From Nanobdellota archaeon (lineage in GTDB: Archaea > Nanobdellota > Nanobdellia > Woesearchaeales > UBA11576): 64,000 nt of DNA. The translations under genes were made by a program, and so were the position numbers. Location: assembly GCA_042576705.1 (NCBI GenBank), contig JBHPEY010000003.1:3438-67437 (forward strand), in the 5' to 3' direction. A model generated the notes under the pieces. That model saw only the letters and a program-made list of their open reading frames with translations. It searched no databases and had not been told where the DNA came from. Shown here in pieces: positions 22,231 to 54,059 of this stretch (positions are counted from its first letter, which is position 1; every line of letters starts with the position of its first letter).

Positions 22231-22502
22231 GCACGGCATCATTAACATGATGTGGGAAAAAAATGAACAGTCTGAGTGTTCTTCATGTCTTGCCCTTGAT
22301 ACAGAAAAATACATTCCTGCACTGCAGCGACCTTCTGTCGCGTGTGCCCTTATGGTGTGAATATGATGTTTTGTGAATTTGGAAAATGTGTTCTGTGGGA
22401 AAACTTCGTTTTCCCATATATAGAAAATCCCGACTTCATCGGGATTTTCAGACATTCGAAAACCAATTTAGCCGACTTCGTCGGCGAAATTGTTTTGTCG
22501 AA

Positions 22503-22646
22503 TGGACCCGTCGGGACTTTCATGATAATGCCCCTTGAGTCACCATCTTTTCGAACCCGAGGCCCCCGCCTTGCAAGGGCGGTGCTCTTTTCCGCTCCGC
22601 GCAAACCTTCGTTCGCAGACGAAGTACCAGACTGAGCTACGGGCCC
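22503..22646 (-). tRNA. tRNA-Ala(UGC) with two non-canonical introns (D-loop and T-loop 59/60), in the 16S-23S spacer
   Basis: Exons assemble to GGGCCCGUAGCUCAGUCUGGUA|GAGCACCGCCCUUGCAAGGCGGGGGCCUCGGGUUCGAA|UCCCGACGGGUCCA. Contains the G3:U70 Ala identity pair, anticodon TGC and a perfect T-stem. Confidence 0.7.
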
Positions 22647-22761
22647 AATTAATGTAATAAAAAACGTTGGAGTGTTTGGCAAACTTTAGCATTATCCCGT
22701 CGAAGACGAGCATCGCTTATTTAGTGGTTTTTTATCTTATCATTACTGATAAAATAAAAAA

Positions 22762-24340
<1,579 letters not shown>

Positions 24341-27683: not shown

Positions 27684-29231
27684 TTATATTGGCACGCACG
27701 CTGTTCCTTGCGGTGTATTCCTGCAGGTGCCTGTTATTGTCCTGTCCGGAGCCTTGAAGCTGCAGGATGCGCCTTCTGATTTCCCGCTGCATGCTGCGGT
27801 CGCTTCTGGAGGTGGTGTCCCTTGGCTATTTGGTGGTGTCTGGGTTGGTGGTTGCTGCTGCGTTGTGGTCGGTTGTGTGCTGGTGAACTTGACATCCACC
27901 AGTTCTGCTCCGCCTCTTACACATCTTGCGTAATTATATATCCTCCTTGCGTCGCCTTGCGGGCCGTGTCCTGTGGGGTAATCATCAGGGTCGCCTGACT
28001 TCGGGTCGCTTCTTTGGCAGCCTGCGCCGTGGACATCGAGCCAGACATTGTTCATGTAGCCCATCGCCCTTCCGAAGGAGATGTATGCAGCGCTGTCTGC
28101 GCTCCGTTCGTTCACGTGGGTTGTGCCTGTCCAGAAGAATGGGTAGTCTTTCTTTCCTGCTTCGTTTGTGATATCTGTTGTGTCGAAGATGGGGTCTATC
28201 GCTGCGGAGGATGTGGCGTCTGGCGATCTTGTGTAGTCTACTATTGACTGCAGTTCTTTTGCGTCTGGCAGGCGCCAGTCATCGTGTGTCGCTAGGTTGA
28301 GTTCTTCGCAATAATTGAGTGCGTCTTTCCATGTCATGCCTTTTTTGCTGTCCTGCTCCTGCCAGGTGAGCCCGCTCCAGTCGTCGGTGATTGTGTTGTC
28401 GTTGTTGTCCTTGAACCTGTTTATGCCGTAATCCTTACCTCTTACGTAGATGACGAAGAATGTCTTTTTCCCTCGGGGGGTTTCAATCCCATACCCTTTT
28501 ATCCTGCCGTCTGCGAAGTTCACGCCGAACACTGTCTCGTCTCCGCCCATGGTCGTTGAGATGTATTTCGTGCCTGAGGCCCACTGTGAATCTATGATGC
28601 GGTCACCTGTGCTTGTGTCTCCGTATTCGAAATTGAAGTAATCTGTGTCTATGAATGGGGTGAGGCCTGATGTGTCTTGTCCTGTGCTGTCTGGGTCTAT
28701 GCCTCTGAAATCCATGAGAGAGTATAGCTCTTTTATCGTCGGGATGCGCCAGTCGTCATGGCCTGCGAGACGGAAGTCTGCAGCTCCATCAATTGCTTGG
28801 TCGTATGTCTTTTTGCTTTTAGGGTCTTGCTGCCACATGAGTCCTGTGCTGAGGTCGGTTATTGTTCCGTCGTTGTTGTCTTTGTACTTCGGAGTCGTTG
28901 TCTGGTATTGTGCGTCCTGGCCGAAGAAGTCTGCGCCTTCGCTTGGGCAGCGCATTTTTCTTGTGTTGTCGTAGCAGTTGTCTTGGGATGTGTCTATGAT
29001 CGCTTTTTTATTTGTTGTTGCGGGTTTGTATTTTGATGTTGGTTCTTCTTGTTTGGTGTCTGTTGTCTTTTGTGTTTCTGTCGCAGGTGTTGTCTGTGTG
29101 GGTGTCTCTTCTGCTGTCTGCTCTGGTGTTGGTTGTGTTGTCGGTGTCTGCGTGGGTTGCACTGCGCAGCCTGCTATGAGAATAAGGATGATTGATAGTG
29201 CTATTAGCAGCCTCTTTTTCATGTTGGCCAT
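27684..29231 (-). CDS. secreted lipoprotein with two DUF1566 (Lcl C-terminal-like) domains and Thr/Pro/Gln-rich linkers
   Basis: Lipobox LIAGC; probable start MANMKK. Two repeats of ...GLMWQ/LTWQ...DDWRIPT/LPDAKEL... Confidence 0.6.
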   Translation of the reverse strand: MANMKKRLLIALSIILILIAGCAVQPTQTPTTQPTPEQTAEETPTQTTPATETQKTTDTKQEEPTSKYKPATTNKKAIIDTSQDNCYDNTRKMRCPSEGADFFGQDAQYQTTTPKYKDNNDGTITDLSTGLMWQQDPKSKKTYDQAIDGAADFRLAGHDDWRIPTIKELYSLMDFRGIDPDSTGQDTSGLTPFIDTDYFNFEYGDTSTGDRIIDSQWASGTKYISTTMGGDETVFGVNFADGRIKGYGIETPRGKKTFFVIYVRGKDYGINRFKDNNDNTITDDWSGLTWQEQDSKKGMTWKDALNYCEELNLATHDDWRLPDAKELQSIVDYTRSPDATSSAAIDPIFDTTDITNEAGKKDYPFFWTGTTHVNERSADSAAYISFGRAMGYMNNVWLDVHGAGCQRSDPKSGDPDDYPTGHGPQGDARRIYNYARCVRGGAELVDVKFTSTQPTTTQQQPPTQTPPNSQGTPPPEATAACSGKSEGASCSFKAPDRTITGTCRNTPQGTACVPI

Positions 29232-29274
29232 GTCTAGACTAACATTTATATAGTTTTGGTATGTTTTCTGGTGC

Positions 29275-29865
29275 ATGAAACTTATCCTTACGCGGCATGG
29301 TGAGACTGAAGAGAATCGCAAGCTAATAATGCAAGGACAGTCCGATGGAAAGCTGTCTGCTGATGGGATCTCTCAGGCAAAGAAGCTCGCCCTGCGGCTG
29401 AAGGACGAGAAGATTGACTGTATATATTCTAGTGATCTTTCCCGGGCTGCGGATACTGCGAAAGAGATTGCAGTGTATCATCCTGATGTTCCATTTGAGG
29501 TTGTTGCTGAGTTGCGTGAATGTTCATTGGGGGTCATGGAAGGGAAGACAAAGAAAGAGATGGGATTCTCAGATGGCGAGCGGCCGCCCAAGGAATTGCG
29601 TGATACCTGTGAAGGCTTTGATGTGCTGTTCTCTCGTGCAGAGAATTTTTTGCATAAGGTCTTGAGTAAGCATGCTGATGATGTTGTGCTTTTTGTTGCA
29701 CATAGCATCATCAATCGCGCTTTGATTGCCGTGATAACTGGAAAGGGTCATGAGGATGTGCCTTTTGTTGAGAGAGTAGGTAATGCTAGTGTCTCTGTGT
29801 TTGAGATTGATGAGGACAAGAACCATAAGATACATCTGTTCAATTGTGTTGGGCATCTGGAGTAG
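29275..29865 (+). CDS. histidine phosphatase superfamily (phosphoglycerate-mutase-like)
   Basis: LILTRHGETEEN RHG motif; C-terminal His (VAHS). Confidence 0.75.
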   Translation: MKLILTRHGETEENRKLIMQGQSDGKLSADGISQAKKLALRLKDEKIDCIYSSDLSRAADTAKEIAVYHPDVPFEVVAELRECSLGVMEGKTKKEMGFSDGERPPKELRDTCEGFDVLFSRAENFLHKVLSKHADDVVLFVAHSIINRALIAVITGKGHEDVPFVERVGNASVSVFEIDEDKNHKIHLFNCVGHLE

Positions 29866-36691: not shown

Positions 36692-38638
36692 ATGGCATTT
36701 GAGTCTAAACCTATCACTTTCGAGGAATTCATCGATCAAGTTAAAGAGCACAATCCTAATGCTAATTTCAAGCTCATAGAGAAGGCATACAGGTTTGCTG
36801 AGCAGGCTCATAAAGGGCAGAAGAGGAGTTCTGGAGAGGCGTTCTTTGTGCACCCGCTTGAGGTAGGGCGCATACTAATCCATCTCAAGGCAGACAGTGC
36901 CACGATCTGCGCAGCACTATTGCACGACACAGTAGAGGATACAAGCACGTCAACAAAGACTGTGCGGGATGAGTTCGGCAAGGAGATAGCAGGCCTTGTA
37001 TCAGGCATGACCAAGATAACCGGCAAAAAATACGAATCAAAGGAGGATTACAAGGCAGAGAACCTGCGGAAGATACTGCTGGCAACTACCAAGGACATCA
37101 GGGTCATCCTCATCCGGCTCGCGGACAGGCTGCACAACATGAGGACGCTCGCGACATTCCGCTCAGACAAGCGGAAGAGGATAGCGCATGAGACCCTTGA
37201 GATATATGCGCCTATCGCGCACAAGCTTGGCATGTGGCGGCTGAAAGGTGAGCTGGAGGATCTGTCATTTAGGTATCTTGATTATGATACCTATGTCCGG
37301 CTTAAGGAGAGCATTGCAGAGAAACGGGTGCAGCGAGAGCAGGCCACTTCAAAGATAGTCAGCATGATCAGGGAGTCACTCCAGGAAAAGAACATAGAAT
37401 CGGATGTGTTCGGCAGGGCGAAATACTTCTACTCAATCTACAAGAAGATGAAGAAGAAGCAGAGGGACTTTGACCAGATATACGACCTGATCGCCATCAG
37501 GATAATAGTCAACACCATCCCTGAATGCTATAAATCACTCGAGATCATACACACGCTTTTCGAGCCGCAGCTGGAACGGTTCAAGGACTACATCCAGCAC
37601 TCTAAAGCGAACGGCTACCAGTCTATACACACTTCTGTAATATATGGACGGAAGATCATAGAGGTGCAGATCAGGACGCACGCGATGCACGCCATTGCAG
37701 AGGCAGGGATAGCGGCGCACTGGAAATACAAAGGAACAGAGAAGGACAAGGCATTCGACAGGAAGATCATGTGGCTCAAGCAGATACTTGAATGGCTGAA
37801 CAAGTCAAAGAATGCGCGGGATTTTGTGGAGACATTGAAGATAGACCTTTTCGAGAATGAGATCATCGTGCTGACTCCCAAGGGTGACCCGATATCGCTG
37901 CCAGAAGGGGCGACACCTGTCGACTTCGCATATGCTGTGCATACAGGCGTAGGCAACCACTGCTCCAAGGCAAAGGTCAATGACAGGATAGAGCCGTTGG
38001 ATCATCCGCTCAACAGCGGGGATGTCGTCGAGATAATGACAAGCAACAATGCGAAGCCTTCACGGGGATGGCTGAATTTCGCTGTCACTTCAAAGGCAAA
38101 GAGCAAGATCCGTTCATTCCTGGGTATAGAGTTTGATCACAAGCCGCGGGAAGCGGCTGCTTCTTCTGATTACGATAAGATAAAGCCGCACCTTGACAGG
38201 TTCATAAAGATACTCGGCAAGAAAGCGCCGCTCAAGCTGTCGAAGTGCTGCCAGCCAGGTTTCAATGACAGCATCATCGGGCTCAACACAAAAGACGGCA
38301 AGATAACCATCCACAAGAGTGACTGCATCAATGTACATAGTGTCGATGAATCTAAGCAGGTCAAGCTTGAGTGGGTGAAGCCTGAAGACAGCAATGTCCG
38401 TAAGCTTAAGGTCTATGTGACTGAGAGGCCGGGTGTGCTTGCGGATCTTCTTAACCTTATGGCTGTAGAGAAGGTATCTGTTAAATCTGTGAATACAAGG
38501 GTCCGGAAGAAGAAGATAATGCTTACGTTTAAGATAGAGGTGGATGAGGATGAAGAGCTTGAGCGAATTGTTGACAAGCTTAACGCGTTGCGGGACGTGA
38601 GTAATGTCAAGGTGGATGAGCAGGGGATAGGGGTTTGA
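36692..38638 (+). CDS. long RelA/SpoT homologue (HD hydrolase + (p)ppGpp synthetase + TGS + ACT domains)
   Basis: HD motif (HDTVEDT), synthetase motif (YQSIHTSV...EVQIRT), TGS domain (LTPKGDPISLPEGATPVDFAY) and C-terminal ACT. Confidence 0.85.
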   Translation: MAFESKPITFEEFIDQVKEHNPNANFKLIEKAYRFAEQAHKGQKRSSGEAFFVHPLEVGRILIHLKADSATICAALLHDTVEDTSTSTKTVRDEFGKEIAGLVSGMTKITGKKYESKEDYKAENLRKILLATTKDIRVILIRLADRLHNMRTLATFRSDKRKRIAHETLEIYAPIAHKLGMWRLKGELEDLSFRYLDYDTYVRLKESIAEKRVQREQATSKIVSMIRESLQEKNIESDVFGRAKYFYSIYKKMKKKQRDFDQIYDLIAIRIIVNTIPECYKSLEIIHTLFEPQLERFKDYIQHSKANGYQSIHTSVIYGRKIIEVQIRTHAMHAIAEAGIAAHWKYKGTEKDKAFDRKIMWLKQILEWLNKSKNARDFVETLKIDLFENEIIVLTPKGDPISLPEGATPVDFAYAVHTGVGNHCSKAKVNDRIEPLDHPLNSGDVVEIMTSNNAKPSRGWLNFAVTSKAKSKIRSFLGIEFDHKPREAAASSDYDKIKPHLDRFIKILGKKAPLKLSKCCQPGFNDSIIGLNTKDGKITIHKSDCINVHSVDESKQVKLEWVKPEDSNVRKLKVYVTERPGVLADLLNLMAVEKVSVKSVNTRVRKKKIMLTFKIEVDEDEELERIVDKLNALRDVSNVKVDEQGIGV

Positions 38639-40348: not shown

Positions 40349-40774
40349 ATGGCAGAAGATATGGACAAGAAACAGAAGGAGCTGCAGAAGAAATATCTGG
40401 AATACCAGATGATGGAGCAGCAGATAAAACAGCTCCAGCAGCAGCTCGAGAAGATGGAAGCACAGACGATGGAGATATCCACTGTTGACCAGAGCCTGGA
40501 GGACATCTCAAAGGCAAAAGCCGGTGATGAGGTGCTCGTGCCAGTGTCGGGAGGGATATTCTTCCGGACAACGATCAAGGAGACCGGCCAGTTCCTGGTG
40601 AATGTCGGCAGCGGCGTTGTCGTGGACAAGAACATCGACGGCACAAGGCAGCTCGTGCAGGGCCAGGCAATAGAGATAGACAAGTACAAGGAACAGGTCA
40701 TGCAGCAGCTTGCGCTTACACTTGCTAAGTACCAAGAGATGGAAAACGAACTCAAGAAACTTATTGAAGGATAA
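40349..40774 (+). CDS. pfdA: prefoldin alpha subunit
   Basis: Coiled coil, double beta-hairpin (VLVPVSGGIFFRTTIKETGQFLVNVGSGVVV), coiled coil. Confidence 0.7.
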   Translation: MAEDMDKKQKELQKKYLEYQMMEQQIKQLQQQLEKMEAQTMEISTVDQSLEDISKAKAGDEVLVPVSGGIFFRTTIKETGQFLVNVGSGVVVDKNIDGTRQLVQGQAIEIDKYKEQVMQQLALTLAKYQEMENELKKLIEG

Positions 40775-40775
40775 A

Positions 40776-42749
40776 ATGTTCAAGTTCTTAAAAGAGAAAC
40801 TGAAGAAGGCTGTATCTAAATTCTCCAGGGATGTAGAGGAAGAGGCAGAGGACATAGAGGCTCCTGTCGAGGCACTGGAAGAGGTGCCTGAGGACAAGCC
40901 TAAGCCTAAGAAGAAACCTGAGGCTGAGAAGCCTGAGGAGGATAAGGTTGAGGAAGAGGTGGAGCCTGAGGAGATAGAGGCACCTGTAGACGAGAAAGAG
41001 GAAGAGAAGGAAGAGGTTGAAGAGCCTGAGGAGAAAGAAGAGGTTGAGGAAGAGCCTGAGGCTGAAGAGGAGAAGGAAGAGACACCTGTTCTTGAACTAC
41101 CTGAGGAAGAGCTGAGCCCTGCGCTGGTCGGGCTCAAGGAGACACTTGATGCTTATTCTGACGAGGATATCGATTCATTGATGAACATACTTGGTTTTGA
41201 TGTTGATGCAAAAGGTAAGGCACGCGACGACAAGATCAATGACATACTTTCTAAACCTATCTTTGAGGTCAGTTCTGCCTTTGACAAGCTGGAGTCGATC
41301 CTGGCTGATCCAGAGGGAAAGGAAGAGCCTGAGGTTGTCGAGGAGCCTGAGGAGCCTGAGGAGCCTGAGCCTGAGGAGCCTGTCGAGGATACCAGCATCA
41401 AGGAGACAAAGGAAGAGCAGGCCATCAAGGAGCAGGACGAGGAACTCGAGGATCTCGACGAGAAGAAGGAAGAGGTCGAGGAGGATCTTGAGGAGGAGGA
41501 CAAGGAGATCGGCCCGCCTGAGGAGTATGAAGAACCTGAGGAGAAAGAAGAGAAGAAAGGCGGGTTCCTGAAGAAGATATTCGGCTTCGGAAAGAAGAAA
41601 GAGGAAGAGCCTGAAGAGAAAGAAGAGGTTGAGGAAGAGCCTGAGCCTGAGGAGACCGTCGAGGAGATAGAGGAAGAAGGCAGAGAGGACGAGGCAAAAG
41701 AAGAGGCTGAAGAAGAGAAAGAGGAAGAGGTCCTTGAAGAGGTCGAGAGAGAAGAGAAGGAACTTGAAGAGCCTGAGGAGAAGGAAGAGGTTGAGGAAGG
41801 GCCTGAAGAGGTTGAAGAGCCTGAGGAGAAAGAAGAGGTCGAGGAAGAGCCTGAGGATAAGAAAGGATTCTTCGGAAGGCTGAAGGAAGGGTTCGGGCTC
41901 AAGAAGCTATCAGAATCAAAATTCGAGGACATATTCTTCGAGCTTGAGATCGCGCTGCTGGAGAACAACGTGGCAGTCGAGGTCATCGAGAAGATCAAGG
42001 CAGACCTCAAGGAGAGGCTCGTCGACAAGAAGATCAAGCGGTCAGAGATTGAGGAGATAGTCCTGGACTCGCTGGTCAAGAGCCTTGACCAGATACTCAG
42101 CATAGAGCAGGTTGATGTGCTTGATAGGATTAAGAAGAAAGAAGGGGACAGGCCTTTTGTGATCACGTTTGTCGGCATCAACGGCTCCGGCAAGACCACT
42201 ACTATAGCCAAGATGGCAAAGTATTTCATGGACAATGACCTTAAGACCGTGCTTGTCGCTTCAGACACGTTCAGGGCAGCGGCGATACAGCAGCTTGAGG
42301 AGCATGCCAACAATCTCGGGGTCAAGGTGATAAAGCATGATTATGGAAGCGATCCTGCAGCAGTCGCTTTTGATGGCATCAAGTATGCAGAGTCCAAGGG
42401 GATCGATGTCGTGCTGATTGATACTGCAGGACGTCTGCATTCCAACATCAATCTCATGGATGAGATGAAGAAGATAATGAGGATAGCTAACCCTGACATG
42501 AAGATATTTGTGGGTGAGTCTATCACCGGGAATGACTGCATCGAGCAGGCGCAGAAGTTCAATGATGCTGTTGATATCGATGGTATTGTGTTGTCTAAGG
42601 CTGATGTTGATGAGAAAGGAGGGGCGGCGCTTTCTGTGTCTTATGTGACTGGCAAGCCTATACTGTTCATCGGGACAGGACAGACGTATGACAGCCTGCA
42701 GAGGTTTGATAAAGGGGTTGTGCTGGAGAATCTTGGGCTTTCTGAGTGA
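40776..42749 (+). CDS. ftsY: signal-recognition-particle receptor FtsY with about 370-aa acidic Glu/Pro-rich repeat N-domain
   Basis: C-terminal NG domain GINGSGKTTT...DTAGR...; N-terminal (EEPEE/KEEVEE)n repeats. Confidence 0.9.
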   Translation: MFKFLKEKLKKAVSKFSRDVEEEAEDIEAPVEALEEVPEDKPKPKKKPEAEKPEEDKVEEEVEPEEIEAPVDEKEEEKEEVEEPEEKEEVEEEPEAEEEKEETPVLELPEEELSPALVGLKETLDAYSDEDIDSLMNILGFDVDAKGKARDDKINDILSKPIFEVSSAFDKLESILADPEGKEEPEVVEEPEEPEEPEPEEPVEDTSIKETKEEQAIKEQDEELEDLDEKKEEVEEDLEEEDKEIGPPEEYEEPEEKEEKKGGFLKKIFGFGKKKEEEPEEKEEVEEEPEPEETVEEIEEEGREDEAKEEAEEEKEEEVLEEVEREEKELEEPEEKEEVEEGPEEVEEPEEKEEVEEEPEDKKGFFGRLKEGFGLKKLSESKFEDIFFELEIALLENNVAVEVIEKIKADLKERLVDKKIKRSEIEEIVLDSLVKSLDQILSIEQVDVLDRIKKKEGDRPFVITFVGINGSGKTTTIAKMAKYFMDNDLKTVLVASDTFRAAAIQQLEEHANNLGVKVIKHDYGSDPAAVAFDGIKYAESKGIDVVLIDTAGRLHSNINLMDEMKKIMRIANPDMKIFVGESITGNDCIEQAQKFNDAVDIDGIVLSKADVDEKGGAALSVSYVTGKPILFIGTGQTYDSLQRFDKGVVLENLGLSE

Positions 42750-42919
42750 TTTTGAGAGGCACAGACGGTCTCAGCAGCAAAACTTTCATGGCGGCAACTG
42801 ACGCTAATCTGTCTAGAACAGCTCTCTAATGCCTTAGATTTGTATTCTATGCTATCAAAACCTTTAAATACGCTCAGGGGTTGTGTGTCGGGTATTAACC
42901 TTTAAAGGAGGATGGTCAT

Positions 42920-43279
42920 ATGGCTAAAAAGAAAAAGGCAGCAAAGGTTGCTCCTAAGTCGAGTTCCAAAGAGGTGGATGATGGAAAGGCATTCGCTTTC
43001 CTCGGCGTGTTCTTGGGAATAATCGGCTTCATCATTGTCCTGCTGGCAAAGAAGGACAATAAGTATGCGATGTTCTATGCAAAGCAGGGGCTTGTGTTGA
43101 CAATAGCGTGGGTGATCCTGTGGGTCATCGGTATCATTCCAGTGCTTGGTTGGATAATAAGCTTCCTTGGAAGTATACTGCTGTTGGTGCTCTGGATCAT
43201 CGGCTGGGTGTATGCTCTCGGCGGAACTGAAAAAGAAATACCATTAATTGGCCAATTCGCTGAAAAAATCAACATTTAA
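42920..43279 (+). CDS. DUF4870-like small membrane protein
   Basis: Lys-rich N-terminus, 3 TM, YAKQGLVL motif. Confidence 0.45.
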   Translation: MAKKKKAAKVAPKSSSKEVDDGKAFAFLGVFLGIIGFIIVLLAKKDNKYAMFYAKQGLVLTIAWVILWVIGIIPVLGWIISFLGSILLLVLWIIGWVYALGGTEKEIPLIGQFAEKINI

Positions 43280-43562
43280 GCGTTTTTTGTTAATTTTTTA
43301 TTCTTTAATTTTATATATGATGCTGACTTCTATACTTCTGGGAAGTATGTTGAGCTATGCTTCGAGGGCAGAATCCAGTTCTGACCCTGTTGTTTACTCT
43401 TAATCACTTCTCAGTGATTAAAACCGTAAATTTTATATATCTGAGGTCATTGTTTATGATAGTTTCAGGGAACAACAAGGGGAAGCAAAAGGGAGCGATT
43501 ATTGAGTCATACTGTTCTATGCAGTGACTGATGAGCTTGAAATAAGACCAATAGGTGGTAAG

Positions 43563-46500
43563 ATGTCTGAAGGAAATGATGATACAAAGGTTGTTTGGGA
43601 CCAGGAAGCTATCAAGAGATGGGCCTGGCGCGTGCGAGAGATGTGGGCACAGCATCTCGGATCTAAAAGACTTCCTGATTCTGCTCTACCTGAAGCAGTG
43701 CTGAAGCATGCTTCAAAGATTGATTCTAAGGCCCCTTCGTGGAAACATGTACGTGCGGCTTATGGAGGCATAGCCCCTCTGGTACAAGCTGTTGAGGAGA
43801 AATACAACCGATGGAATGAAGACGAATGCGCTGTCTGGGGCTGGACGCTCAGGGAGCAGCTTTCCCAGGAGAGGGTGGCGAGAGGTGAAGAGACTTGTTC
43901 ACTTACAATCACAGATATTGTCAATGGCCTGCGGCAGGATGAGGATGCGCCTCTTCCTGAGACACTTGCCAGAGTGTATGGTAGTGATGTGCAAAGCATG
44001 ATCGATACTGTCGAACAGTTCTATGGATTGTCAAAAGGACGTAGTGCAGCACAGGCTGAAGAGGATGCGTTTGAGACAAAAGCTACTGCTGCTTTCGAAA
44101 GGCTCGACGAGGACAGAGATACAGATGTACTTGCAGACTCTCCTCCGGAAGAGAAGACACAACCGCTTTCTATGATTGCAAGCGCTATACAGGATCCTGA
44201 CGAGAGATACCAGGCTGCCAAGAGTGTCTGGAGAAAAGGCGGCAAGGTCATCGGTTCGGAACAGGAATTGGCCGAGCTTGAGATACATGATTCACTGCAG
44301 ACACCTGCAGAGGCGCATGATGAGAAAGTCGTCACTCTTGTAAATGATTTCATCTACTTACGGCAGCAGAGGGATGGGCCGCTCACTGAAGAGGATATTG
44401 AAACACACCTCGGTTCACTCAATGCATTCAATGCAGTATTCCACAGTCTCAACCGTGCTGAAGATGCTTACCAGATGGGTCAGAGGCACAGGGAACAGGT
44501 CACTGAAAGGAAGAGGATAATGGGGAGGGTACAGCTAGAAGAGCGAGAAGTACCGTCGGAACAGCCGAAACGGTTGAGAAAGATAAAGAACACACTGCAG
44601 GGAATGACTTCAGAGTATTCCTTTACATCCAGAGATCAGATACAGCATATACAGCAGGACTCGGCTGAAGGAGCAAAGGGGACCACGCTTGAGGGTGTGG
44701 GGCCGGAGCAGCAGTCAGAGTCACATCCAATACTTATGGGGATTGAACCTGAGCAAGCTCTTGCAAGACCAGAGCCTGGTGAGCTTGATGGTATTCCACA
44801 GACAGTCGTAGGCATGGGTCACGGAGAGCTGCGTGATATTCCAAAGACAACCCCTGGCTTTGGTGCAGAAAGCATAGAGGACGCGAATGACCTCAGAGTA
44901 TCAGGCGGGCCTAATCATGATGATGGGGCCTACAACACAAATCTCGCAAGTGCGCGGTCGATGAAGACTGCGGAGGATGTACGTGGGATCGCAAGGGAAC
45001 TTGGCTATACAGATGTTGAGGTCGGTGGTGAAGGCCCTGATGAATCTGAAGAGCATGAGGCCATAACGCACCCTGGCGGGAAGTTGCCAGGACTGGTGTC
45101 CGACGACGCTACAGAGGAACCTGCAGATGAAGATTATGAGTATACACCGGTCACCCTTCCGCAGGATGACCAGCCTGTCTTTGGCCAGTTTCAGGATGCA
45201 TTCCAGAAGCTGAGCGAAAAGGATCAGGAGGCTATCCTGGATGCTGCTTTGCAGAATGGCAAGGGTCATGCAGATGAGCCTACATTGGAAGACCAGATGC
45301 ATGAAGGGGATAATACAGAAGACATCACGGTCAAGAGACAGTATACTGCAGGTACATCTGAACCGGAATCTGTCGAACCTACAGGTCGTGTTGGTTCGGA
45401 AAGTGATGATACTGAGTTTGATGCCAACCCTGACACAAATGTGCCTTTTGAGCCGAGGCATGTACAGTCTTTTTTACAGCACTCTATCGATCAGATGAAG
45501 GAACACGCAGAACAAGGAGAGGGTCCCGAAGCGCAGGATGCATCACTTGATGCCCCGCAGAGTATGGGTACTGAAGTGGTTGGTGAGGAGCCTGTCACTG
45601 AACAGAGCGTGAACCGCAGGTTTGATCTCTCTGCGACTGGCCATACAGAAGAAGTTCCTTTTGACCAGCTTGCCCAGGCGAAACAGGGATATGCAGGCGA
45701 TATACCTGAGAGTGAGCTTGCAACAAAGAGTGATGTCATCTCTTCTGATCCTAGCGGTCCAACAGAGACCTCAGGCACCATCAACATATCAAAGCAATCC
45801 GCTGACCCTGGTGACAAGTCCATAGAGGCTAAGGTCGCGCAGGAACCCGCTGCAGAGAATGGCGGTGAGAGGGAGCGGAGCCCTACGCCCATGTCCGGGC
45901 AGGTATATGATCCTATGAAGCCTTCAGACACTGTGAAGCGGGCCATGCAGAGACAGATAGATGAGCTCAACAAGAGAGAGGCACAGGGGAAGACTGTCAA
46001 GAAAGAGAAGAAGTCCTGGAGCAGAAGCAAGAAGATGGTGGCAGCAGTCGCTGCTGGTGTCGGCGTCTTTGCTTTAGGCGGTGCAATCCTTTACTCTTCC
46101 TTCACGACACCTGACAAGGATATCTCCAACATGGTGGCTGCAAGCAATCAGTATGGAGTTATCGCTTCATTTGATGCTGGAACAAGAAGCATCGATGCTG
46201 CTGTTGACGCAATCGGTGCGGTTGCATATTCTAGTGATGCTGGAGAGGGAATGCAGACACCTGCAGTCGCTACAGCGTCTGCGGAAGAACCTGAGCCTAA
46301 GGTCGATAAGGCCGAGCCTAAAATACCGGGCATGCATCCGGAGAGGGCATGTAATCTCAGGCTTCAGATGGGATTTGATGATGTAAAGTATTCGAGTGCA
46401 AGTGCTGAGCAAGACCTTGAGGATTATGTCAGTTCCATGCTCAAGTCGGGCAAGAGGAAATTCAAGGTTTTTGGCACGGCAAGCATCGAGGATGCGAATG

Positions 46501-48335
46501 ACCTCAAGGTGTCAGGCGGGCCCCATCATGATGATGGAGACTACAACACCAAGCTCGCAGAGCAGCGGGCGATGAAGACTGTGGAGGACATACGCAGTAT
46601 CGCAAGGAACCTCGGCTATACAGACGTTGAGGTCGATGGTGAAGGCTGGTCAGAGAAGGATCTCTGGGCAAAGGGCAAAGATCCGCGAAGCCTTGCGCAG
46701 AACAGGGGTGTGTTTGTATCGACTGACTGGGTGCTGGATCCTGACCTTGAGGAAACTATCAGGGATGTGGTCGAGGACTATTCGTTCGGCGAGATGAACG
46801 GTGAGAGCTGTCCAGACGGAACAGGTGACGGCAGCAAAGGAAGCATGAACCAGCAGGATAATGCGCCTGATGATAATTTCATGCCTGATATTGATGATTC
46901 AGATGATGATTCATCTGACGGGACAGAGGCATATGCAGACAATTCAGATTCAATAGACCACCTTACAGGGATACAGAGGACTGTGGTGCATGACCGCATG
47001 GGCAAGTACCTCGATGGGGCAATCACCTGGTTTGAGCTGCGTGAAGATGTCGCGGAGTATGGAGTCCCGTATATTACAGGCGAAGAGGCATTGCAGGTCC
47101 ATGAGCTGCTCTCTGACGGAGTGGAAGCTACAGATAAGGTTGATTATGCTGTGCTCTCTTCGGGTTTCGTTGAGGGTGCCTGGTCAGATGAGGTGCTGAT
47201 GACCGAGGTTGCACCTGGCTATGCTTCAGAGAGGTTGGTCGGTAAGATACTGGAACAGGTGGAGAATCAGCAGTGTTCAAACGATACTGATGATGATGTC
47301 CTGTTCACACTCGACAAGTACGAGCAGCTGAAGACAGATAAAGCTCTCGCAGAAGCTGATGCTGATGATCCTGATGAGGAGATACCCAGCCTTCTGTATG
47401 AGGTCTCTGATGATACTGTGCTGTCTGCAGGGTTTGTTGATAATTCCCAGTCGGATCAAGAGGAAGCGATAATCGCTGAACTTCTGCCGGCCTATGCTGC
47501 AGATAAGTGCGTTGAAAACCTGAGGGCAGAGGCTGACAGCCAGCAGTCTTCAGATGCTGGTGATTCCGGCAAGGGGTCCGGCCTTTTGTATGTGGTTTCG
47601 GATGATACTGTGTTGTCTTCAGGGTTTATTGAGGATGCTCCGTCGGATGAAGAGTTGGTTGATGAGGTCCTGCCAGGGTATGCGCTACATAGGCGTGTTG
47701 AGAACAGAAGGCAGGATGAGAACCGCCGGGCTTCGGAAGTCATTGAGGATCTTACCAAAGACTTTGATGAGGCTAACCCTGATGCTTGTGCGACCCGGTC
47801 AGCGCTTTCCCTGCTCCAGTCCGAAGACACAGAACCAGATGATTACAATGTCGAGGGTAATGGCGATCCAGAGTATGACTCTGCCAAGGTAGCTGCTGAG
47901 GTCAAGGAAATGCAGAAGCAAGAGAAGGAAAGGGCACAGGATGTACTCGCCGATATCTTGTCAGATGTTGATAGAGAGTGTGCCAAGAGCGAGGCAGAGC
48001 GTGATTATATACCTCAGTATGGTGTTTTTGAGATAGATGCTCTCGGTGAGCTGCACTATGACTATGCAGAGTTCGAGGATGTCGACAGGATGGCAAGGAT
48101 CCATGGCATAGATAACTTCGGCAAGACAGTCCCCAAGCATGATTTCGCAAGATGGGCTACGATAGTTGAGCTCAGCAAGATGGATGATTGCGAGTGCGAT
48201 GAAGTGGGTGGGGCACTCTATGGGCTGAAAGAGATTGCGCAGAACCAGGATGTTGTTGCGCTTGAGAGGCCTGAGTCCAAGCCTAATCCTGAGCCAGAAG
48301 GCGCAGCACTTGAAGATTATCTCATGGCTGCATAA
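43563..48335 (+). CDS. giant acidic repeat protein (about 1,590 aa) with a single central TM helix
   Basis: Longest ORF in the window. One TM (MVAAVAAGVGVFALGGAILYSSF) near residue 840. Internal repeats on both sides of it (SIEDANDL[RK]VSGGP[NH]HDDG.YNT.LA...YTDVEV.GEG; three copies of TVLS[AS]GF[VI][ED]...). No recognisable catalytic domain. Confidence 0.6.
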   Translation: MSEGNDDTKVVWDQEAIKRWAWRVREMWAQHLGSKRLPDSALPEAVLKHASKIDSKAPSWKHVRAAYGGIAPLVQAVEEKYNRWNEDECAVWGWTLREQLSQERVARGEETCSLTITDIVNGLRQDEDAPLPETLARVYGSDVQSMIDTVEQFYGLSKGRSAAQAEEDAFETKATAAFERLDEDRDTDVLADSPPEEKTQPLSMIASAIQDPDERYQAAKSVWRKGGKVIGSEQELAELEIHDSLQTPAEAHDEKVVTLVNDFIYLRQQRDGPLTEEDIETHLGSLNAFNAVFHSLNRAEDAYQMGQRHREQVTERKRIMGRVQLEEREVPSEQPKRLRKIKNTLQGMTSEYSFTSRDQIQHIQQDSAEGAKGTTLEGVGPEQQSESHPILMGIEPEQALARPEPGELDGIPQTVVGMGHGELRDIPKTTPGFGAESIEDANDLRVSGGPNHDDGAYNTNLASARSMKTAEDVRGIARELGYTDVEVGGEGPDESEEHEAITHPGGKLPGLVSDDATEEPADEDYEYTPVTLPQDDQPVFGQFQDAFQKLSEKDQEAILDAALQNGKGHADEPTLEDQMHEGDNTEDITVKRQYTAGTSEPESVEPTGRVGSESDDTEFDANPDTNVPFEPRHVQSFLQHSIDQMKEHAEQGEGPEAQDASLDAPQSMGTEVVGEEPVTEQSVNRRFDLSATGHTEEVPFDQLAQAKQGYAGDIPESELATKSDVISSDPSGPTETSGTINISKQSADPGDKSIEAKVAQEPAAENGGERERSPTPMSGQVYDPMKPSDTVKRAMQRQIDELNKREAQGKTVKKEKKSWSRSKKMVAAVAAGVGVFALGGAILYSSFTTPDKDISNMVAASNQYGVIASFDAGTRSIDAAVDAIGAVAYSSDAGEGMQTPAVATASAEEPEPKVDKAEPKIPGMHPERACNLRLQMGFDDVKYSSASAEQDLEDYVSSMLKSGKRKFKVFGTASIEDANDLKVSGGPHHDDGDYNTKLAEQRAMKTVEDIRSIARNLGYTDVEVDGEGWSEKDLWAKGKDPRSLAQNRGVFVSTDWVLDPDLEETIRDVVEDYSFGEMNGESCPDGTGDGSKGSMNQQDNAPDDNFMPDIDDSDDDSSDGTEAYADNSDSIDHLTGIQRTVVHDRMGKYLDGAITWFELREDVAEYGVPYITGEEALQVHELLSDGVEATDKVDYAVLSSGFVEGAWSDEVLMTEVAPGYASERLVGKILEQVENQQCSNDTDDDVLFTLDKYEQLKTDKALAEADADDPDEEIPSLLYEVSDDTVLSAGFVDNSQSDQEEAIIAELLPAYAADKCVENLRAEADSQQSSDAGDSGKGSGLLYVVSDDTVLSSGFIEDAPSDEELVDEVLPGYALHRRVENRRQDENRRASEVIEDLTKDFDEANPDACATRSALSLLQSEDTEPDDYNVEGNGDPEYDSAKVAAEVKEMQKQEKERAQDVLADILSDVDRECAKSEAERDYIPQYGVFEIDALGELHYDYAEFEDVDRMARIHGIDNFGKTVPKHDFARWATIVELSKMDDCECDEVGGALYGLKEIAQNQDVVALERPESKPNPEPEGAALEDYLMAA

Positions 48336-48348
48336 TCATTTATTTTTC

Positions 48349-49014
48349 TTATTCAAATTCTATCTTTCCGTCGTGATAGACACCTTTATGCAGGTCTACA
48401 GGGCGCCAGGTGTCATGGACTAGCTTTGCGTCTAGCCATTCTGCGAGCTCGTCCTCATTCCCTATCGTCGCGCTGAGCCCTATGAACTGGACGTCTTTCA
48501 GGATCTGCTTAAGGATTGTTATGAGTATCTCCAGGGTGGGCCCCCTGCCAGGGTCATTCAGGAGGTGGATCTCGTCCACTATGACAACACTTATGTCCTT
48601 GAGCCAGGATGCATGGTGCCTTGTGAGTGAGTCTAATTTTTCTGAGGTTGTTATTATGAGGTCATAGGTGTGAAGATGCGGGTCAGATGCGTCTAGATCT
48701 CCTATCGACATGCCTATCTTGATGTGTTTTTCATATTTCTTCTTGAAATCTTTGTATTTCTCTGTGGCCAATGCCTTGAGAGGTACTATGTAGACGGCTT
48801 TTCCTTTCTGGTTGAGGATAGCGTTCATGAAGGCAAGTTCTGCTACCAGGGTCTTGCCGCTGGCTGTCGGGGTGCAGACGAGGAGGGATTTTCCTTCGAG
48901 AAGTCCGGTTTTTATTGATTTCTCCTGGCTGCGCCTGAGTTCGGATATGCCTGCGGTCTCAAGTGCTGTGTATAACTCTTCCGGAATCTTTTCTTTTATG
49001 TCGCTCAGTTGCAT
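48349..49014 (-). CDS. Ski2/Hel308-like helicase RecA1 domain only (truncated or split gene; pseudogene candidate)
   Basis: Motifs TPTASGKT (I), DEIH (II) and LSAT (III), then a stop after 221 aa abutting the 3' end of the giant gene. Confidence 0.65.
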   Translation of the reverse strand: MQLSDIKEKIPEELYTALETAGISELRRSQEKSIKTGLLEGKSLLVCTPTASGKTLVAELAFMNAILNQKGKAVYIVPLKALATEKYKDFKKKYEKHIKIGMSIGDLDASDPHLHTYDLIITTSEKLDSLTRHHASWLKDISVVIVDEIHLLNDPGRGPTLEILITILKQILKDVQFIGLSATIGNEDELAEWLDAKLVHDTWRPVDLHKGVYHDGKIEFE

Positions 49015-49434: not shown

Positions 49435-49920
49435 CTAACTGTTTCTGGCCCAGGGTGCTATCATCTCTTTCTCTTCGTACTGGTGGAAGCTGACCATGAG
49501 TCCGAGGCTCTTGTTTGTATTCTTGACACGCCTGACAGCAGATATCACGTCTTGTTCGGTCGGTCTTGCAGAGGTGCTATACATGCCGTCCTTATGTTCT
49601 ACATTGTTGTCTTCTGCCATCTGTACTGCCAGGGTCTCATATTCCGGCCCGTATTCTTCTATAGGTGTTCCCCTTACACGGATATCTGTCACAGAACTGT
49701 CGAACCAATAGTTGAACAGCACTTCAACACCGTCTGCTGAGAGCTGCGCTTCCCTGTAGAGCTCTTTGTTGTTTTTCCTGAATCTTGAGAACAATCCTTT
49801 TGGCTGATAACCGGGGGACTCCTGTGCCAGTGCAAGAAAATTGTCTGTGTCTATCTCACCTTCTGCCTTGAGAGCCCTTGCAAGGTCATCCAGTGTCATG
49901 TTTTCATCTATCAGTTCCAT
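49435..49920 (-). CDS. hypothetical protein
   Basis: ORF track only. Confidence 0.35.
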   Translation of the reverse strand: MELIDENMTLDDLARALKAEGEIDTDNFLALAQESPGYQPKGLFSRFRKNNKELYREAQLSADGVEVLFNYWFDSSVTDIRVRGTPIEEYGPEYETLAVQMAEDNNVEHKDGMYSTSARPTEQDVISAVRRVKNTNKSLGLMVSFHQYEEKEMIAPWARNS

Positions 49921-51291: not shown

Positions 51292-51876
51292 TTAAACCGT
51301 CTTCTTCAGGAAATTGAAGTATAGCTGTTCTCCTAGATCCTCTGTCTTTTCTGGGTGGAATTGGACTCCATATATCTCTTTCTCGTTGTGCTTCATAGCT
51401 TCAACTTCTGTGCTGTCTGAAGAAGCCAGTCTTGTGAAGCATTCAGGCAGCGTGATCTCTTCTTCATGGTTGACATATGAGACAAAATCTTTCTCTAATC
51501 TGTCGAATAGATGCGAATCTGAGATGATATCAATCCTGTCATCTCCCTTTCTGACAGGGCCGCGTATCACTTTCGCGCCGAAGAACCAACCGATAAGCTG
51601 ATGGCCGAAGCATACGCCCAGAATTGGAAGGCCTGTGTTCATACACCAACGGATGTGCGGAAAGTAGTCTTCTTGCTTTGCTTCAGAAACAAATAAAGGC
51701 GAACCGCTAAAGATAATACAGTCGAAATCCTTTGGATCCAGCTGGCTCACTTCATTCAGGTACACGGTCGTAAGGCTGTCTGTATGCTTGCTGATGACTT
51801 TTTGCATATCAGGCAAAAACCAGCTCTTCCCGCAATCCAGCAAGAGAACCCTGCTCTTGAGTTTTTCTTCTGACAT
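51292..51876 (-). CDS. class I glutamine amidotransferase-like protein (PuuD / gamma-glutamyl hydrolase-like)
   Basis: GVCFGHQLI catalytic Cys motif and a C-terminal His. N-terminus SRVLLLDCG. Confidence 0.7.
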   Translation of the reverse strand: MSEEKLKSRVLLLDCGKSWFLPDMQKVISKHTDSLTTVYLNEVSQLDPKDFDCIIFSGSPLFVSEAKQEDYFPHIRWCMNTGLPILGVCFGHQLIGWFFGAKVIRGPVRKGDDRIDIISDSHLFDRLEKDFVSYVNHEEEITLPECFTRLASSDSTEVEAMKHNEKEIYGVQFHPEKTEDLGEQLYFNFLKKTV

Positions 51877-53146
51877 ATTCTGGTAATTCGCTCCTCTGTT
51901 TATCTTTTCTTTCTTTTGTTAAGTGTGTAAGCGCCCTAAGCATGAATTCTCTTTGAGGTACATATACATCTTCATAAATTGCTCGGTGGATATTGTGATT
52001 CACTGTCCGAGAGTCTGCTGCTTCTTTAATATAGTCTGCGGCGGTTTCACCATCATAAGTCATCCCTATGAACCTATCGACGAAAGCCTTTTCTCTATCT
52101 TCAAGTCCTTTATGCGCGAATTCCAGGAATGATATGCAGTATTCATTATTTTCTGTATTATTAAGACCGTATCTTGCTGCGTCATCGTGTAATCTTTTCA
52201 GTTTCTTAGAATCTCCCTTAAGGTCGTCTTTCATGAGAACACTTTCAAGCAGAGGATTTGTCACACCTTTTACGTCTCCAGATCTTATTCGTCTCATACC
52301 GCCTTCGAGTAAGGTCAGGTATGCTATGAGATTGTATAGGTAGGGATTCGATCCTGCAGTCCTGGCTTCGACTGTGCTGTGTTTTGGACTCAACCTAACC
52401 GGACCTGAAATGCTGCAATATTCATCATAATAGTCTAATTCAGTGAAAATATGCCCGTTTTCTACAGCTCTCTGCTTGAATTTTTTAAATTCTGCTTTCA
52501 CTTCTGCTTCATGTTCTTCAAGGCTTCTTTTAAGATCCTGCATCTGTCCTTGATACGGGAGTTTTCTGTGAGCAATATTTCTGTAGTTGTGAATCCTCCA
52601 GTTATGGAAGCCTTCAATTGGCGATGCAGATGTCAGCAGAATTGTAACAGGGTCTGAAGCTGTAAGATAGTTCATCTGGTCAATGACTTTTCCTTCTTCC
52701 TGTGAGAAGTGTATGTGGGTCCCATTGACTTTTGTTTTTATTTCAAGACCGTCCAGTCCAATTGTTTTAGTGATTAATCCTGCAACATCTGAATCATGTC
52801 TTCTTTCGTGCTCATATGGGATGAGTGATGTATCGAGGGGAAGAGTTAACAGGCCGGCGCCTTTTGCAATTTCATCCAGGCGTTTGGCTCTTTTCATGAG
52901 ATCAAGGGCTGTTTCAAAGATATTGTTGTGTGGTTCTGTGACTGTTTCTACTGAAGCTAGGCTGATTTCTTGGTGGTATCCTTCAGCTTTACCGATTCCG
53001 TTGATAATCTCATCTGCTTGGGGTGTGGGTATACCATCTTTGTCAAGTAGCAGGACTTCAAGTTCCATTCCTGTTTTGTCCAATGTTTTAGGTTCGAATT
53101 GACCCTCAATTGGTTCTAGAATTCGTAAAAATACGTTATTTGGCAT
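51809..53146 (-). CDS. glutamate-cysteine ligase family 2 (GCS2 / YbdK-type carboxylate-amine ligase) with C-terminal extension
   Basis: GMELEVLLLD (compare G.E.EF.LVD) and GTHIHFS (compare GLHVHVG). Confidence 0.7.
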   Translation of the reverse strand: MPNNVFLRILEPIEGQFEPKTLDKTGMELEVLLLDKDGIPTPQADEIINGIGKAEGYHQEISLASVETVTEPHNNIFETALDLMKRAKRLDEIAKGAGLLTLPLDTSLIPYEHERRHDSDVAGLITKTIGLDGLEIKTKVNGTHIHFSQEEGKVIDQMNYLTASDPVTILLTSASPIEGFHNWRIHNYRNIAHRKLPYQGQMQDLKRSLEEHEAEVKAEFKKFKQRAVENGHIFTELDYYDEYCSISGPVRLSPKHSTVEARTAGSNPYLYNLIAYLTLLEGGMRRIRSGDVKGVTNPLLESVLMKDDLKGDSKKLKRLHDDAARYGLNNTENNEYCISFLEFAHKGLEDREKAFVDRFIGMTYDGETAADYIKEAADSRTVNHNIHRAIYEDVYVPQREFMLRALTHLTKERKDKQRSELPEYVRRKTQEQGSLAGLREELVFA

Positions 53147-53444
53147 TTTATTAGTTAATTAGCCTCTCTTTTCTTTTTCTGAATCGCTAATTGTCGTCTA
53201 TTTTTGATTTAGCTCTTGTTTTACCTAATATATGTTGTTATTACTAGTATATTAATATTTCTTTTTTGATTTTTACAAGTTTCTGGTGTTTTAACTGGTT
53301 TTAACTGCTTTTTATCTATTTTTTACCTTAAAGGAGGCTAGAATGGCGGTTTCTTTTATGTCTTATCAGGGCATCACAGAACAATGCAGAATTTATTGAA
53401 AGCATTGTGACAAAAGAGTCACAATGTTTAAAAACCAATGACCT

Positions 53445-54059
53445 ATGTTGTGCTGTATGCAACACTACAAGCAGACGACAAAGTACACCTGCGCAGCGGC
53501 TTCTCTTGCCATGATAATCAACCATTTCAAGCCAGAGTTCGAGTTGAGTGTTGAGAACGAGTTCGACATCTGGCATTGTTCGGCTGCGCTGCCTACCAAG
53601 GGAAGCTCTATCTATGCGCTTGCATCTTATGCTGGTGGGAATGGTGTGCCTGTGATGGTTGTTGTGGGTGAGAAGGAGTACAAGTTCCCTGGCTACAAGT
53701 TCAAGGCATACAAGAAGAAGGAGATAGAGATTGCTGCGCAGAGCACGCAGTTCTATTATGAGAAGGCAGAGGATACTGGGATAACTATTGAGGTCAGGGA
53801 TTTCTCTCTTGATGAGGTGAAGAACCTCCTTGCGCAGGGCAAGGTGCTGTTGCTGCGGCTGATTGTTGGGATCGTTCGGCAGAGCAGGGACAATAAACGG
53901 AATCCGCATTACCTGCCTGTGTATGGGTTTGAGAAAGGGAAGTTCCTGGTGATGGACCCTCGGTTCGGGGCGAAGAAGGTTGATGAGGGTGTTGTTCAGG
54001 AGGCTTTTGACAAGGTGGTTGAGGTCAAGAGGGACCATCGGATGATTGTTTTTGGGTAG
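53445..54059 (+). CDS. papain-fold peptidase, C39-like (BtrH-like)
   Basis: YTCAAASLAMI Cys motif and downstream His (NPHYLPVYG). Confidence 0.5.
   Translation: MLCCMQHYKQTTKYTCAAASLAMIINHFKPEFELSVENEFDIWHCSAALPTKGSSIYALASYAGGNGVPVMVVVGEKEYKFPGYKFKAYKKKEIEIAAQSTQFYYEKAEDTGITIEVRDFSLDEVKNLLAQGKVLLLRLIVGIVRQSRDNKRNPHYLPVYGFEKGKFLVMDPRFGAKKVDEGVVQEAFDKVVEVKRDHRMIVFG

Follow-up and report, generated by a model that had tools for sequence, protein, structure and literature searches.

A Woesearchaeota-like archaeon encodes a giant, acidic single-pass membrane protein with a predicted OmpA-like ectodomain

The C-terminal domain of OmpA and its relatives in Pal, RmpM and YfiB (PF00691) represent a bacterial type of peptidoglycan-binding domain, in which, as the complex of Acinetobacter baumannii OmpA shows, an Asp/Arg pair holds the carboxylate of meso-diaminopimelate (m-DAP) in peptidoglycan. 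In MotB, PomB and TssL, which cross the inner membrane once, an OmpA-like domain lies in the periplasm, behind a linker and one helix of N-in orientation. HubP of Vibrio and FimV of Pseudomonas are giant, extremely acidic single-pass proteins with a wall-binding domain by the membrane and imperfect acidic repeats of ~46 residues, and giant surface proteins exist in DPANN archaea too, for example the SPEARE proteins of Nanohaloarchaeota. Here we describe a gene whose product resembles each of these in part. It occupies positions 43563-48335 (forward strand) of a 64,000-nucleotide stretch, referred to as the window, of contig JBHPEY010000003.1 from a Nanobdellota archaeon (GCA_042576705.1), and encodes a protein of 1,590 residues. 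We find that a domain of ~135 residues which follows the only membrane helix of this giant protein is predicted to adopt the OmpA-like fold, an assignment that modelling together with profile searching makes a solid one. A domain type known for binding peptidoglycan in bacteria is thus predicted to be exposed by an archaeal cell in which murein would not be expected. The fold as such is already known; what is new is an archaeal family below the Pfam threshold, set within a giant, acidic, single-pass and fast-evolving protein.

An exhaustive HMMER comparison of residues 391-1590 with 1.84 billion cluster representatives brought up eight other proteins. Each of them matches residues ~874-1084 only, a region that includes the second copy (A2) of an internal repeat. 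The family thus comprises nine cluster representatives, all labelled hypothetical or unlabelled, and the alignment of its common domain reads C-x-L-x-L-x-M-x-F-D-S ... V-x-G-x-A-S-I-E-D ... D-D-x-x-Y-N-x-x-L-A-x-R-R-A ... N-R-G-V-x-x-S ... C. Its likeness to OmpA was first noticed by eye and then tested with Pfam, with a profile search of the PDB, with AlphaFold2 and with Foldseek. The Pfam OmpA model matches three of the nine members (best E 6.5e-4), the giant protein not being one of them; its domain lies below the gathering threshold of PF00691 and is thus not formally a member of that family. When a profile of this alignment was compared with all PDB sequences, 22 of the 24 matches at E <= 1 were OmpA-like (best E 0.0064), among them Pal, YfiB, OprF, PomB, TssL and P6. 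The AlphaFold2 model of the domain alignment (pLDDT 77, pTM 0.77) has the β-α-β-α-β-β arrangement, with elements in the order E-H-E-(H)-H-E-E, and a Foldseek search of the PDB with this model gave 58 matches at E <= 0.001, the top 50 of which are all OmpA-like at probability 1.00. The best match is OprF (5u1h, E 7e-6), followed by Pal, the C-terminal domain of OmpA, YfiB, MotB and TssL, and target-normalised TM-scores reach 0.72.

The domain is encoded by nucleotides 46350-46811, the fold itself spanning residues ~930-1062 and being bracketed by Cys930 and Cys1083. Apart from the fold and a predicted position near the membrane on its outer side, it shares with PF00691 the motifs FD.DS, YN..L..RA and NR(R/G)V at equivalent positions of the family consensus; in the alignment with A. 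baumannii Pal the counterparts of these are FDYDS, YN..LGERRA and ENRRV. The giant protein itself has FDDV (residues 938-941) where the consensus has FDS, and carries YN..L..RA (994-1003, YNTKLAEQRA) and NRGV (1047-1050, within NRGVFVS, 1047-1053), both aligned to Pal. Arg1002, the candidate counterpart of the ligand-holding Arg, is present and stands in register in seven of the nine members; the equivalent of the Asp would be either D977 or D980, since an insertion makes the alignment ambiguous here. The domain differs from PF00691 in that it is archaeal (DPANN), stays below the Pfam threshold, has ASIED (973-977) and an insertion of 10-14 residues in place of GHTD, is bracketed by a conserved Cys pair, and sits in an acidic protein of 1,590 residues rather than in a porin or lipoprotein. 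Taken together, it is a small, previously unannotated and divergent branch of the OmpA-like superfamily. No such archaeal family is described in Pfam or NCBIfam, and the literature we searched held nothing relevant on OmpA-like domains in DPANN archaea, in Woesearchaeota or in archaea at large.

With the whole protein as query, Pfam, NCBIfam and the PDB sequences gave no match, and segment by segment Pfam and the PDB (phmmer) returned noise only (POTRA, prolyl hydroxylase, zf-HC2 and others, all E > 0.01). A word-indexed search with the whole protein found the protein itself and nothing else. The same search with the domain alignment or with residues 1-431 returned nothing and is uninformative, for it missed known members too; and scans of genome, metagenome and viral contigs were null but likewise missed known members, so that absence from them means little. 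The preliminary description of the locus, made from the sequence without database searches, had seen no recognisable domain in the protein and had called its repeats novel, statements that the profile, AlphaFold2 and Foldseek results contradict for the ectodomain and for the repeat lying in it.

On which side of the membrane would this domain reside? The sole hydrophobic segment of the giant protein is MVAAVAAGVGVFALGGAILYSSF (residues 825-847, nucleotides 46035-46103), which contains no acidic residue and has a mean Kyte-Doolittle value of 2.25, as compared to 0.94 for the second-best segment anywhere in the protein; the single helix formerly placed near residue 840 thereby receives its exact position. 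Directly before it stands the K/R-rich stretch KKEKKSWSRSKK (813-824, 45999-46034), and lysine and arginine amount to 8 of the 15 residues preceding the helix versus 1 of the 15 following it. Because of this charge distribution, and because no signal sequence is present at the hydrophilic N-terminus, we read the helix as a signal-anchor of N-in/C-out orientation. The earlier designation of the K/R-rich stretch as a stop-transfer signal implies the opposite orientation and is disfavoured on the same two grounds. Residues 1-824, including this flank, would then be cytoplasmic, and the C-terminal half (residues 848-1590, that is the linker, the OmpA-like domain, the B repeats and the tail) is very probably extracellular. 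In all eight homologues lysine and arginine before the helix are at least as many as after it, and in one of them (P0009) the helix starts at residue 15, as expected of a signal-anchor.

The arrangement around the helix recurs in the family. Full-length homologues have one hydrophobic helix ~100-200 residues upstream of the OmpA-like domain, preceded by an N-terminal part whose length varies between 14 and 824 residues. In the giant protein the domain begins ~80 residues after the helix, the intervening predicted extracellular linker (848-929, 46104-46349) carrying a DAGT..ID motif (871-878) that the alignment consensus shows to be conserved in the family. The Cys pair is kept in eight of the nine members; Cys930 and Cys1083 are compatible with an extracellular disulfide, which perhaps staples the domain. 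The acidic C-terminal region (1392-1590, 47736-48332) contains no second hydrophobic segment, and the protein therefore has no C-terminal membrane anchor.

One N-in helix, a linker and an OmpA-like domain outside, as predicted here, is also the order found in MotB, PomB and TssL. The matches by fold or by profile include MotB and PomB, and a small multi-pass membrane protein (DUF4870) is encoded directly upstream of the giant gene and co-inherited with it. These observations would suit a stator subunit of the MotB/TolR/ExbD type which is anchored to a wall via its OmpA-like domain and has the DUF4870 protein as MotA/TolQ-like partner. We consider this nearly excluded, as the helix lacks the carboxylate (eight homologues have a helix, and none carries Asp or Glu in it) and no partner of the MotA/ExbB type is found, the neighbours scanned giving no MotA_ExbB match and the upstream protein belonging to DUF4870/MamF_MmsF. 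Moreover, the 824 residues of cytoplasmic N-terminus have no counterpart in stator subunits as generally known, and ~530 residues follow the domain.

The domain also explains what the preliminary description had noted as a 60-residue repeat occurring once on each side of the membrane helix. Both copies stand (residues 433-494 and 970-1031, 73-79% identical, E = 8.5e-22 by self-comparison), and at the DNA level they are 82% identical over 177 nucleotides (44859-45035 and 46470-46646); repeats A and B of the giant protein are both far above chance. Repeat A is the core of the divergent OmpA-like domain. Its first copy (A1, residues 433-491, 44859-45035) is a partial in-frame duplicate of that core, which runs from FG.(A/E)SIED to GEG, covering the fold from the end of strand 2 up to and including strand 3, and is without strand 1, helix 1 and the last strand (strand 4, NRGV). 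None of the other homologues has a second motif of the ASIED type; each carries it once. Over 66 codons, slightly more than the 59 of the duplicate, A1 and A2 differ by 12 synonymous-only and 20 residue changes, a pattern compatible with some constraint. A1 is a young, genome-specific segmental duplication within an otherwise unalignable acidic region. Its location ahead of the membrane is a historical accident and not architecture, and the symmetry of the two copies, partial as A1 is and confined to this genome, is no design feature of the protein.

The second set of repeats, three copies of ~40 residues noticed earlier in the C-terminal half, is borne out by self-comparison (residues 1194-1243, 1277-1334 and 1341-1391; pairwise E 1.5e-7 to 3e-14). 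They are encoded at 47142-47735, are predicted to be extracellular and have the core (LLY.VS)DDTVLSsGF.e..sDEE...E.LPgYA...VEN; the second and third share 77 nucleotides at 82% identity. Outside the giant protein the B repeats were found only in P0007, a 205-residue fragment from a contig of 1.2 kb.

The cytoplasmic part begins with two predicted Trp-rich helical units of ~70 residues (8-82 and 83-155, 43584-44027), which match each other weakly (12-81 versus 84-154, E = 0.014, self-comparison). Three such units are present in the homologue P0002, to residues 7-85 of which the N-terminus of the giant protein is matched at E 2.5e-4, and one each in P0003 and P0004. An AlphaFold2 model of the first 161 residues, built on a five-row alignment, is all-helical at pLDDT 50, too poor for a fold search, so that the units look like small helical bundles as far as modelling goes. 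None of the families to which they were compared was significant. By eye they resemble the homing-endonuclease-associated repeat of Pfam (HNH_repeat, PF18780), which matches one homologue only (E 0.058) and not the giant protein itself, and this resemblance is only a lead. A phage replisome organiser, considered as a match of a profile of seven units against the PDB, was rejected (best E 0.068).

The order of an N-terminal helical repeat, a spacer, one helix and an ectodomain could also be that of a membrane-tethered regulator or cytoskeleton adaptor similar to ToxR/CadC or RodZ, with N-terminal units of the helix-turn-helix (HTH) type binding DNA or a filament and the ectodomain acting as sensor or anchor. 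The HNH_repeat match would fit such a protein, as would matches of one family member to HTH_23 and HTH_7 (E 4e-4 to 1e-3). We nevertheless think it quite improbable: no HTH family is significant in the giant protein, neither the unit profile nor the N-terminal model lends it weight at the values just given, and P0008 and P0009, members with a short N-terminus, have no detectable unit match.

Between these units and the K/R-rich flank extends an acidic spacer of ~660 residues (44028-45998), predicted to be cytoplasmic, of which only the embedded A1 can be aligned to the orthologues, and there to their OmpA-like domains. Residues 161-824 have a predicted isoelectric point (pI) of 4.5 and 21% hydrophobic residues, and no homologue match falls outside A1. 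Acidity and size are among the features that recall HubP and FimV, to which the giant protein is likened here by analogy and not by homology. It could accordingly be asked whether it is a scaffold or landmark of the cell's own envelope, to which the domain would fix it while the acidic regions recruit proteins, no host contact being involved. Like HubP and FimV it is giant, very acidic and single-pass, with a domain of wall-binding type by the membrane and imperfect repeats of ~45-60 residues, and the retention of N-terminal helical units among the orthologues suggests a cytoplasmic partner. Then again, HubP and FimV use LysM and have their repeats in the cytoplasm, whereas the giant protein has an OmpA-like domain with the B repeats on the same, outer side, and Pfam and NCBIfam scans detect in it neither LysM nor the FimV C-terminal domain. 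For a recruitment hub it would be odd, too, that the cytoplasmic spacer cannot be aligned even between close genomes, and no polymer of the archaeon's own envelope is known that an OmpA-like fold would bind. We therefore regard such a scaffold as unlikely, though less so than the regulator or adaptor; both the HubP/FimV-like hub and the RodZ/ToxR-like adaptor are still analogies for which there is little direct evidence.

The family includes proteins of the same build as the giant one in other genomes. P0002 (1,765 residues), P0003 (1,358) and P0004 (1,214) consist of a long N-terminal region, one helix, the OmpA-like domain and a long C-terminal region. Their genes, together with that of P0006, all converge on a short gene of 221-225 residues that encodes a DEAD domain only (DEAD-221), and where the upstream order is visible it is eIF6, prefoldin, FtsY, DUF4870 and the giant gene, with TreT beyond DEAD-221. 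These genes, from four other assemblies, are positional orthologues of the giant gene, and the comparison of synteny that the preliminary description had proposed thus yields a conserved slot. A slot and an architecture shared by four independent assemblies also bear on the suspicion that the giant gene is an artefact, either an assembly chimera or a decaying, non-functional reading frame open by chance. In principle the internal 177-bp repeat could seed a mis-join, and most of the protein is unconserved acidic sequence of low complexity. Yet the copies, at 82% identity, are too divergent for assembly collapse, 1,590 stop-free sense codons cannot arise by chance, the motifs of the domain are conserved, and the codon differences between A1 and A2 accord with some constraint. 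An artefact can hardly be upheld against this, and we conclude that the gene at 43563-48335 is real and that its product, giant, acidic and crossing the membrane once, belongs to a DPANN (Woesearchaeota-like) archaeon.

Compared with the closest of the orthologous loci (L042), the genes around the giant gene are well conserved: identity is 94% for the FtsY GTPase (191 residues aligned), 86% for DUF4870 (106), 79% for TreT (404) and 76% for DEAD-221 (221). For the giant protein it falls to 42% in the OmpA-like region (158 residues aligned) and to 27% at the N-terminus (88), and global identity with P0002 is ~25%. By these alignments the giant protein diverges far faster than its neighbours.

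The upstream gene (42920-43279, forward strand) encodes a small membrane protein of 119 residues that matches Pfam DUF4870 and also MamF_MmsF. Orthologues of it adjoin P0002 and P0003 (86% identical in L042, 68% in L043), and it is absent from 41 other related loci (L001-L041), so that DUF4870 and the giant protein may form a functional pair. The interval from FtsY to DEAD-221 measures 5.6 kb in the window (42750-48348). In 22 other Woesearchaeota loci it measures 0-3.7 kb and holds unrelated small genes, with no homologue of the giant protein and none of DUF4870; across Woesearchaeota this is a variable spot, which is occupied genome by genome by different small membrane proteins, regulators or enzymes. 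Because homologues of both are absent from these 22 loci, DUF4870 and the giant gene have the look of a two-gene unit that entered the variable spot on a single occasion, within a sub-clade. A search for flanking direct repeats of the kind left by mobile insertions found none, and a scan of viral contigs, of limited power as it also missed known members, gave no viral relatives of the giant protein. Elsewhere, two tandem genes of locus L046 (1486-3138 and 3240-4749), one of them P0008, both match the OmpA-like region (E 1e-11 and 5e-10), and the family can therefore occur as adjacent paralogues outside the slot between FtsY and DEAD-221.

But what would an OmpA-like domain do on the surface of such an archaeon? 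From the fold and the position of the domain, which our analyses establish, we infer a function in binding. The best explanation in our view, which we hold with somewhat more confidence than doubt, is that the giant protein is an N-in/C-out envelope tether. Its OmpA-like ectodomain, ~80 residues away from the outer face of the membrane, would bind a wall-type glycan or peptide polymer non-covalently. This polymer might be found in the wall of another cell, be it a partner or a host (bacterial murein, for instance), or it might be part of the archaeon's own envelope. The acidic extensions would serve as long, flexible spacers on both sides, the N-terminal helical units might dock a cytoplasmic partner, and the co-inherited, adjacent DUF4870 membrane protein may act together with the giant protein. 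To host wall and own envelope we give roughly equal weight, because we know of no DPANN archaeon that makes murein and because the divergence is of the kind expected of a contact surface. In this respect the giant protein resembles the SPEARE proteins, being, like them, a large, lineage-specific, fast-evolving and membrane-associated DPANN protein and a candidate for host contact. It differs from them in being much smaller and in lacking detectable domains of the protease, nuclease or adhesin type (laminin-G and the like), the OmpA-like domain being its sole recognisable module.

Several points weigh against the envelope tether. The giant protein gives no Pfam OmpA match at E <= 10, neither whole nor as the isolated domain, and the E-values of the profile matches to the PDB are weak when taken singly. 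With GHTD replaced by ASIED and the insertion, it is ambiguous which residue corresponds to the DAP-binding Asp, and P0004 and P0005 carry the conserved Arg out of register. No ligand is known for the domain, peptidoglycan binding being putative, and murein, as just mentioned, is not known from DPANN archaea. The topology follows from sequence rules only. Disordered acidic sequence under weak constraint, rather than diversifying selection, could be the source of the fast divergence. Finally, the family is tiny, with its nine cluster representatives, and the protein is therefore not a general DPANN device.

A bolder form of the proposal would make the ectodomain a grappler of peptidoglycan, or pseudomurein, by which cells of one sub-clade latch onto the wall of a bacterial or methanogen host, with DUF4870 and the giant gene as a lineage-specific attachment cassette under diversifying selection. 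We think this unlikely. If it were true, these uncultured, wall-less Woesearchaeota, whose hosts and attachment mechanisms are, to our knowledge, largely unknown, would for the first time have yielded a molecular hint of the kind of host they use. An OmpA-like ectodomain in a Woesearchaeon offers, in any case, a lead on host contact that specialists can use and test. The preliminary description had likewise proposed a cell-surface or host-interaction protein, and the giant, acidic single-pass build, a C-terminal half very probably outside and the fast evolution fit that proposal.

A further suggestion concerned the gene directly downstream (48349-49014, reverse strand), taken to be a truncated helicase at a locus which the giant gene, or its arrival, had disrupted. 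Its 221 residues hold only the first RecA-like (DEAD/ResIII) domain of a Hel308-like helicase, so that the features of a Hel308/Ski2-type enzyme, both RecA-like domains in a polypeptide of ~700 residues, are lacking. The comparison with relatives refutes a disruption by the giant gene. Among 38 related loci, ~30 have a DEAD-only reading frame of 219-225 residues, a few have one of 234-350 residues, and in two a contig end interrupts the frame; stand-alone genes of ~221 residues occur in L001-L029, L035, L039 and L042-L045. The short form in the ~30 Woesearchaeota loci is 62-71% identical, and most of these are without the giant gene; in L005, L009 and L014, which have none, FtsY abuts the short DEAD gene directly. 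A DEAD-only gene of 221-225 residues stands beside every orthologue of the giant gene, the Hel308-like form of 670-715 residues is found only in more distant archaea, and no second helicase half was found, neither in the window nor, in relatives, within 10 kb. By these comparisons the shortening is thus ancient and lineage-wide rather than a local truncation. DEAD-221 is a conserved short form and not insertion debris, which corrects a tempting misreading.

In the window, DEAD-221 and TreT are separated by a gene for an acidic hypothetical protein of 161 residues without Pfam match (49435-49920, reverse strand). In L042 and L044 DEAD-221 and TreT are directly adjacent, which marks this gene as a further local insertion. 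Downstream of the giant gene and DEAD-221, L042 and L043 encode two PIG-L deacetylases and one ATP-grasp protein, L044 encodes a protein similar to the C-terminal part of D-Ala-D-Ala ligase, and all three loci have a gene of the Peptidase_C39-like type (DUF3335). The counterpart in the window (51292-54059) consists of GATase, GCS2 and a C39-like gene, a form of the cluster different from that in L042-L044; the cluster may be linked to envelope or solute chemistry.

As to the giant gene itself, its open reading frame (ORF) of 4.8 kb starts with ATG, ends at 48335 including the stop codon and is closely preceded by GGTGGT (43554-43559). A mechanical ORF search places the start at a GTG 39 nucleotides upstream, giving 1,603 residues. 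We prefer the ATG, because the NCBI product (hypothetical protein ACFL3V_01315 [Nanoarchaeota archaeon]) has exactly 1,590 residues and because the N-terminus of P0002 starts, by alignment, at the equivalent residue. The next-longest ORF of the window has 706 residues. The giant protein contains 335 Asp and Glu (21%) and 152 Lys and Arg (9.6%) and has a pI of 4.3, in agreement with its earlier characterisation as the longest and a highly acidic ORF. Since the median pI of the window ORFs is 8.3, this acidity is a property of the protein and not of the proteome, and a salt-in halophile proteome is ruled out as its source. Antisense ORFs within the gene (up to 186 residues) are a Ser/Cys/Leu-rich mirror of its GAN-rich codons and were treated as non-coding.

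The surroundings are those of an ordinary archaeal chromosome. The window carries an archaeal 16S-23S operon, eIF6, prefoldin, FtsY and a long RelA/SpoT homologue, as well as enolase, iPGM, LonB, Kae1, eIF2-alpha, ScpA, transketolase and DprA, and the nearest relatives of the flanking genes come from metagenome-assembled genomes labelled Woesearchaeota or Nanoarchaeota. In the rRNA operon (19296-24340, reverse strand) the 16S match extends over 1,577 nucleotides as compared to a model of 1,478 positions, which suggests an insertion of ~100 nucleotides. FtsY (40710-42749, forward strand) has an extremely Glu-rich N-terminal extension of ~380 residues (33% Asp and Glu, pI 4.2), the length of which differs widely among relatives, their FtsY ORFs ranging from 369 to 601 residues. 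The RelA/SpoT homologue (36692-38638, forward strand) is complete, with 648 residues and HD_4, RelA_SpoT, TGS and ACT domains; long enzymes of this family are unusual in archaea. A protein of 545 residues encoded at 27684-29321 (reverse strand) has two matches to Lcl_C, the C-terminal domain of the Legionella collagen-like protein, and is possibly a further surface protein.

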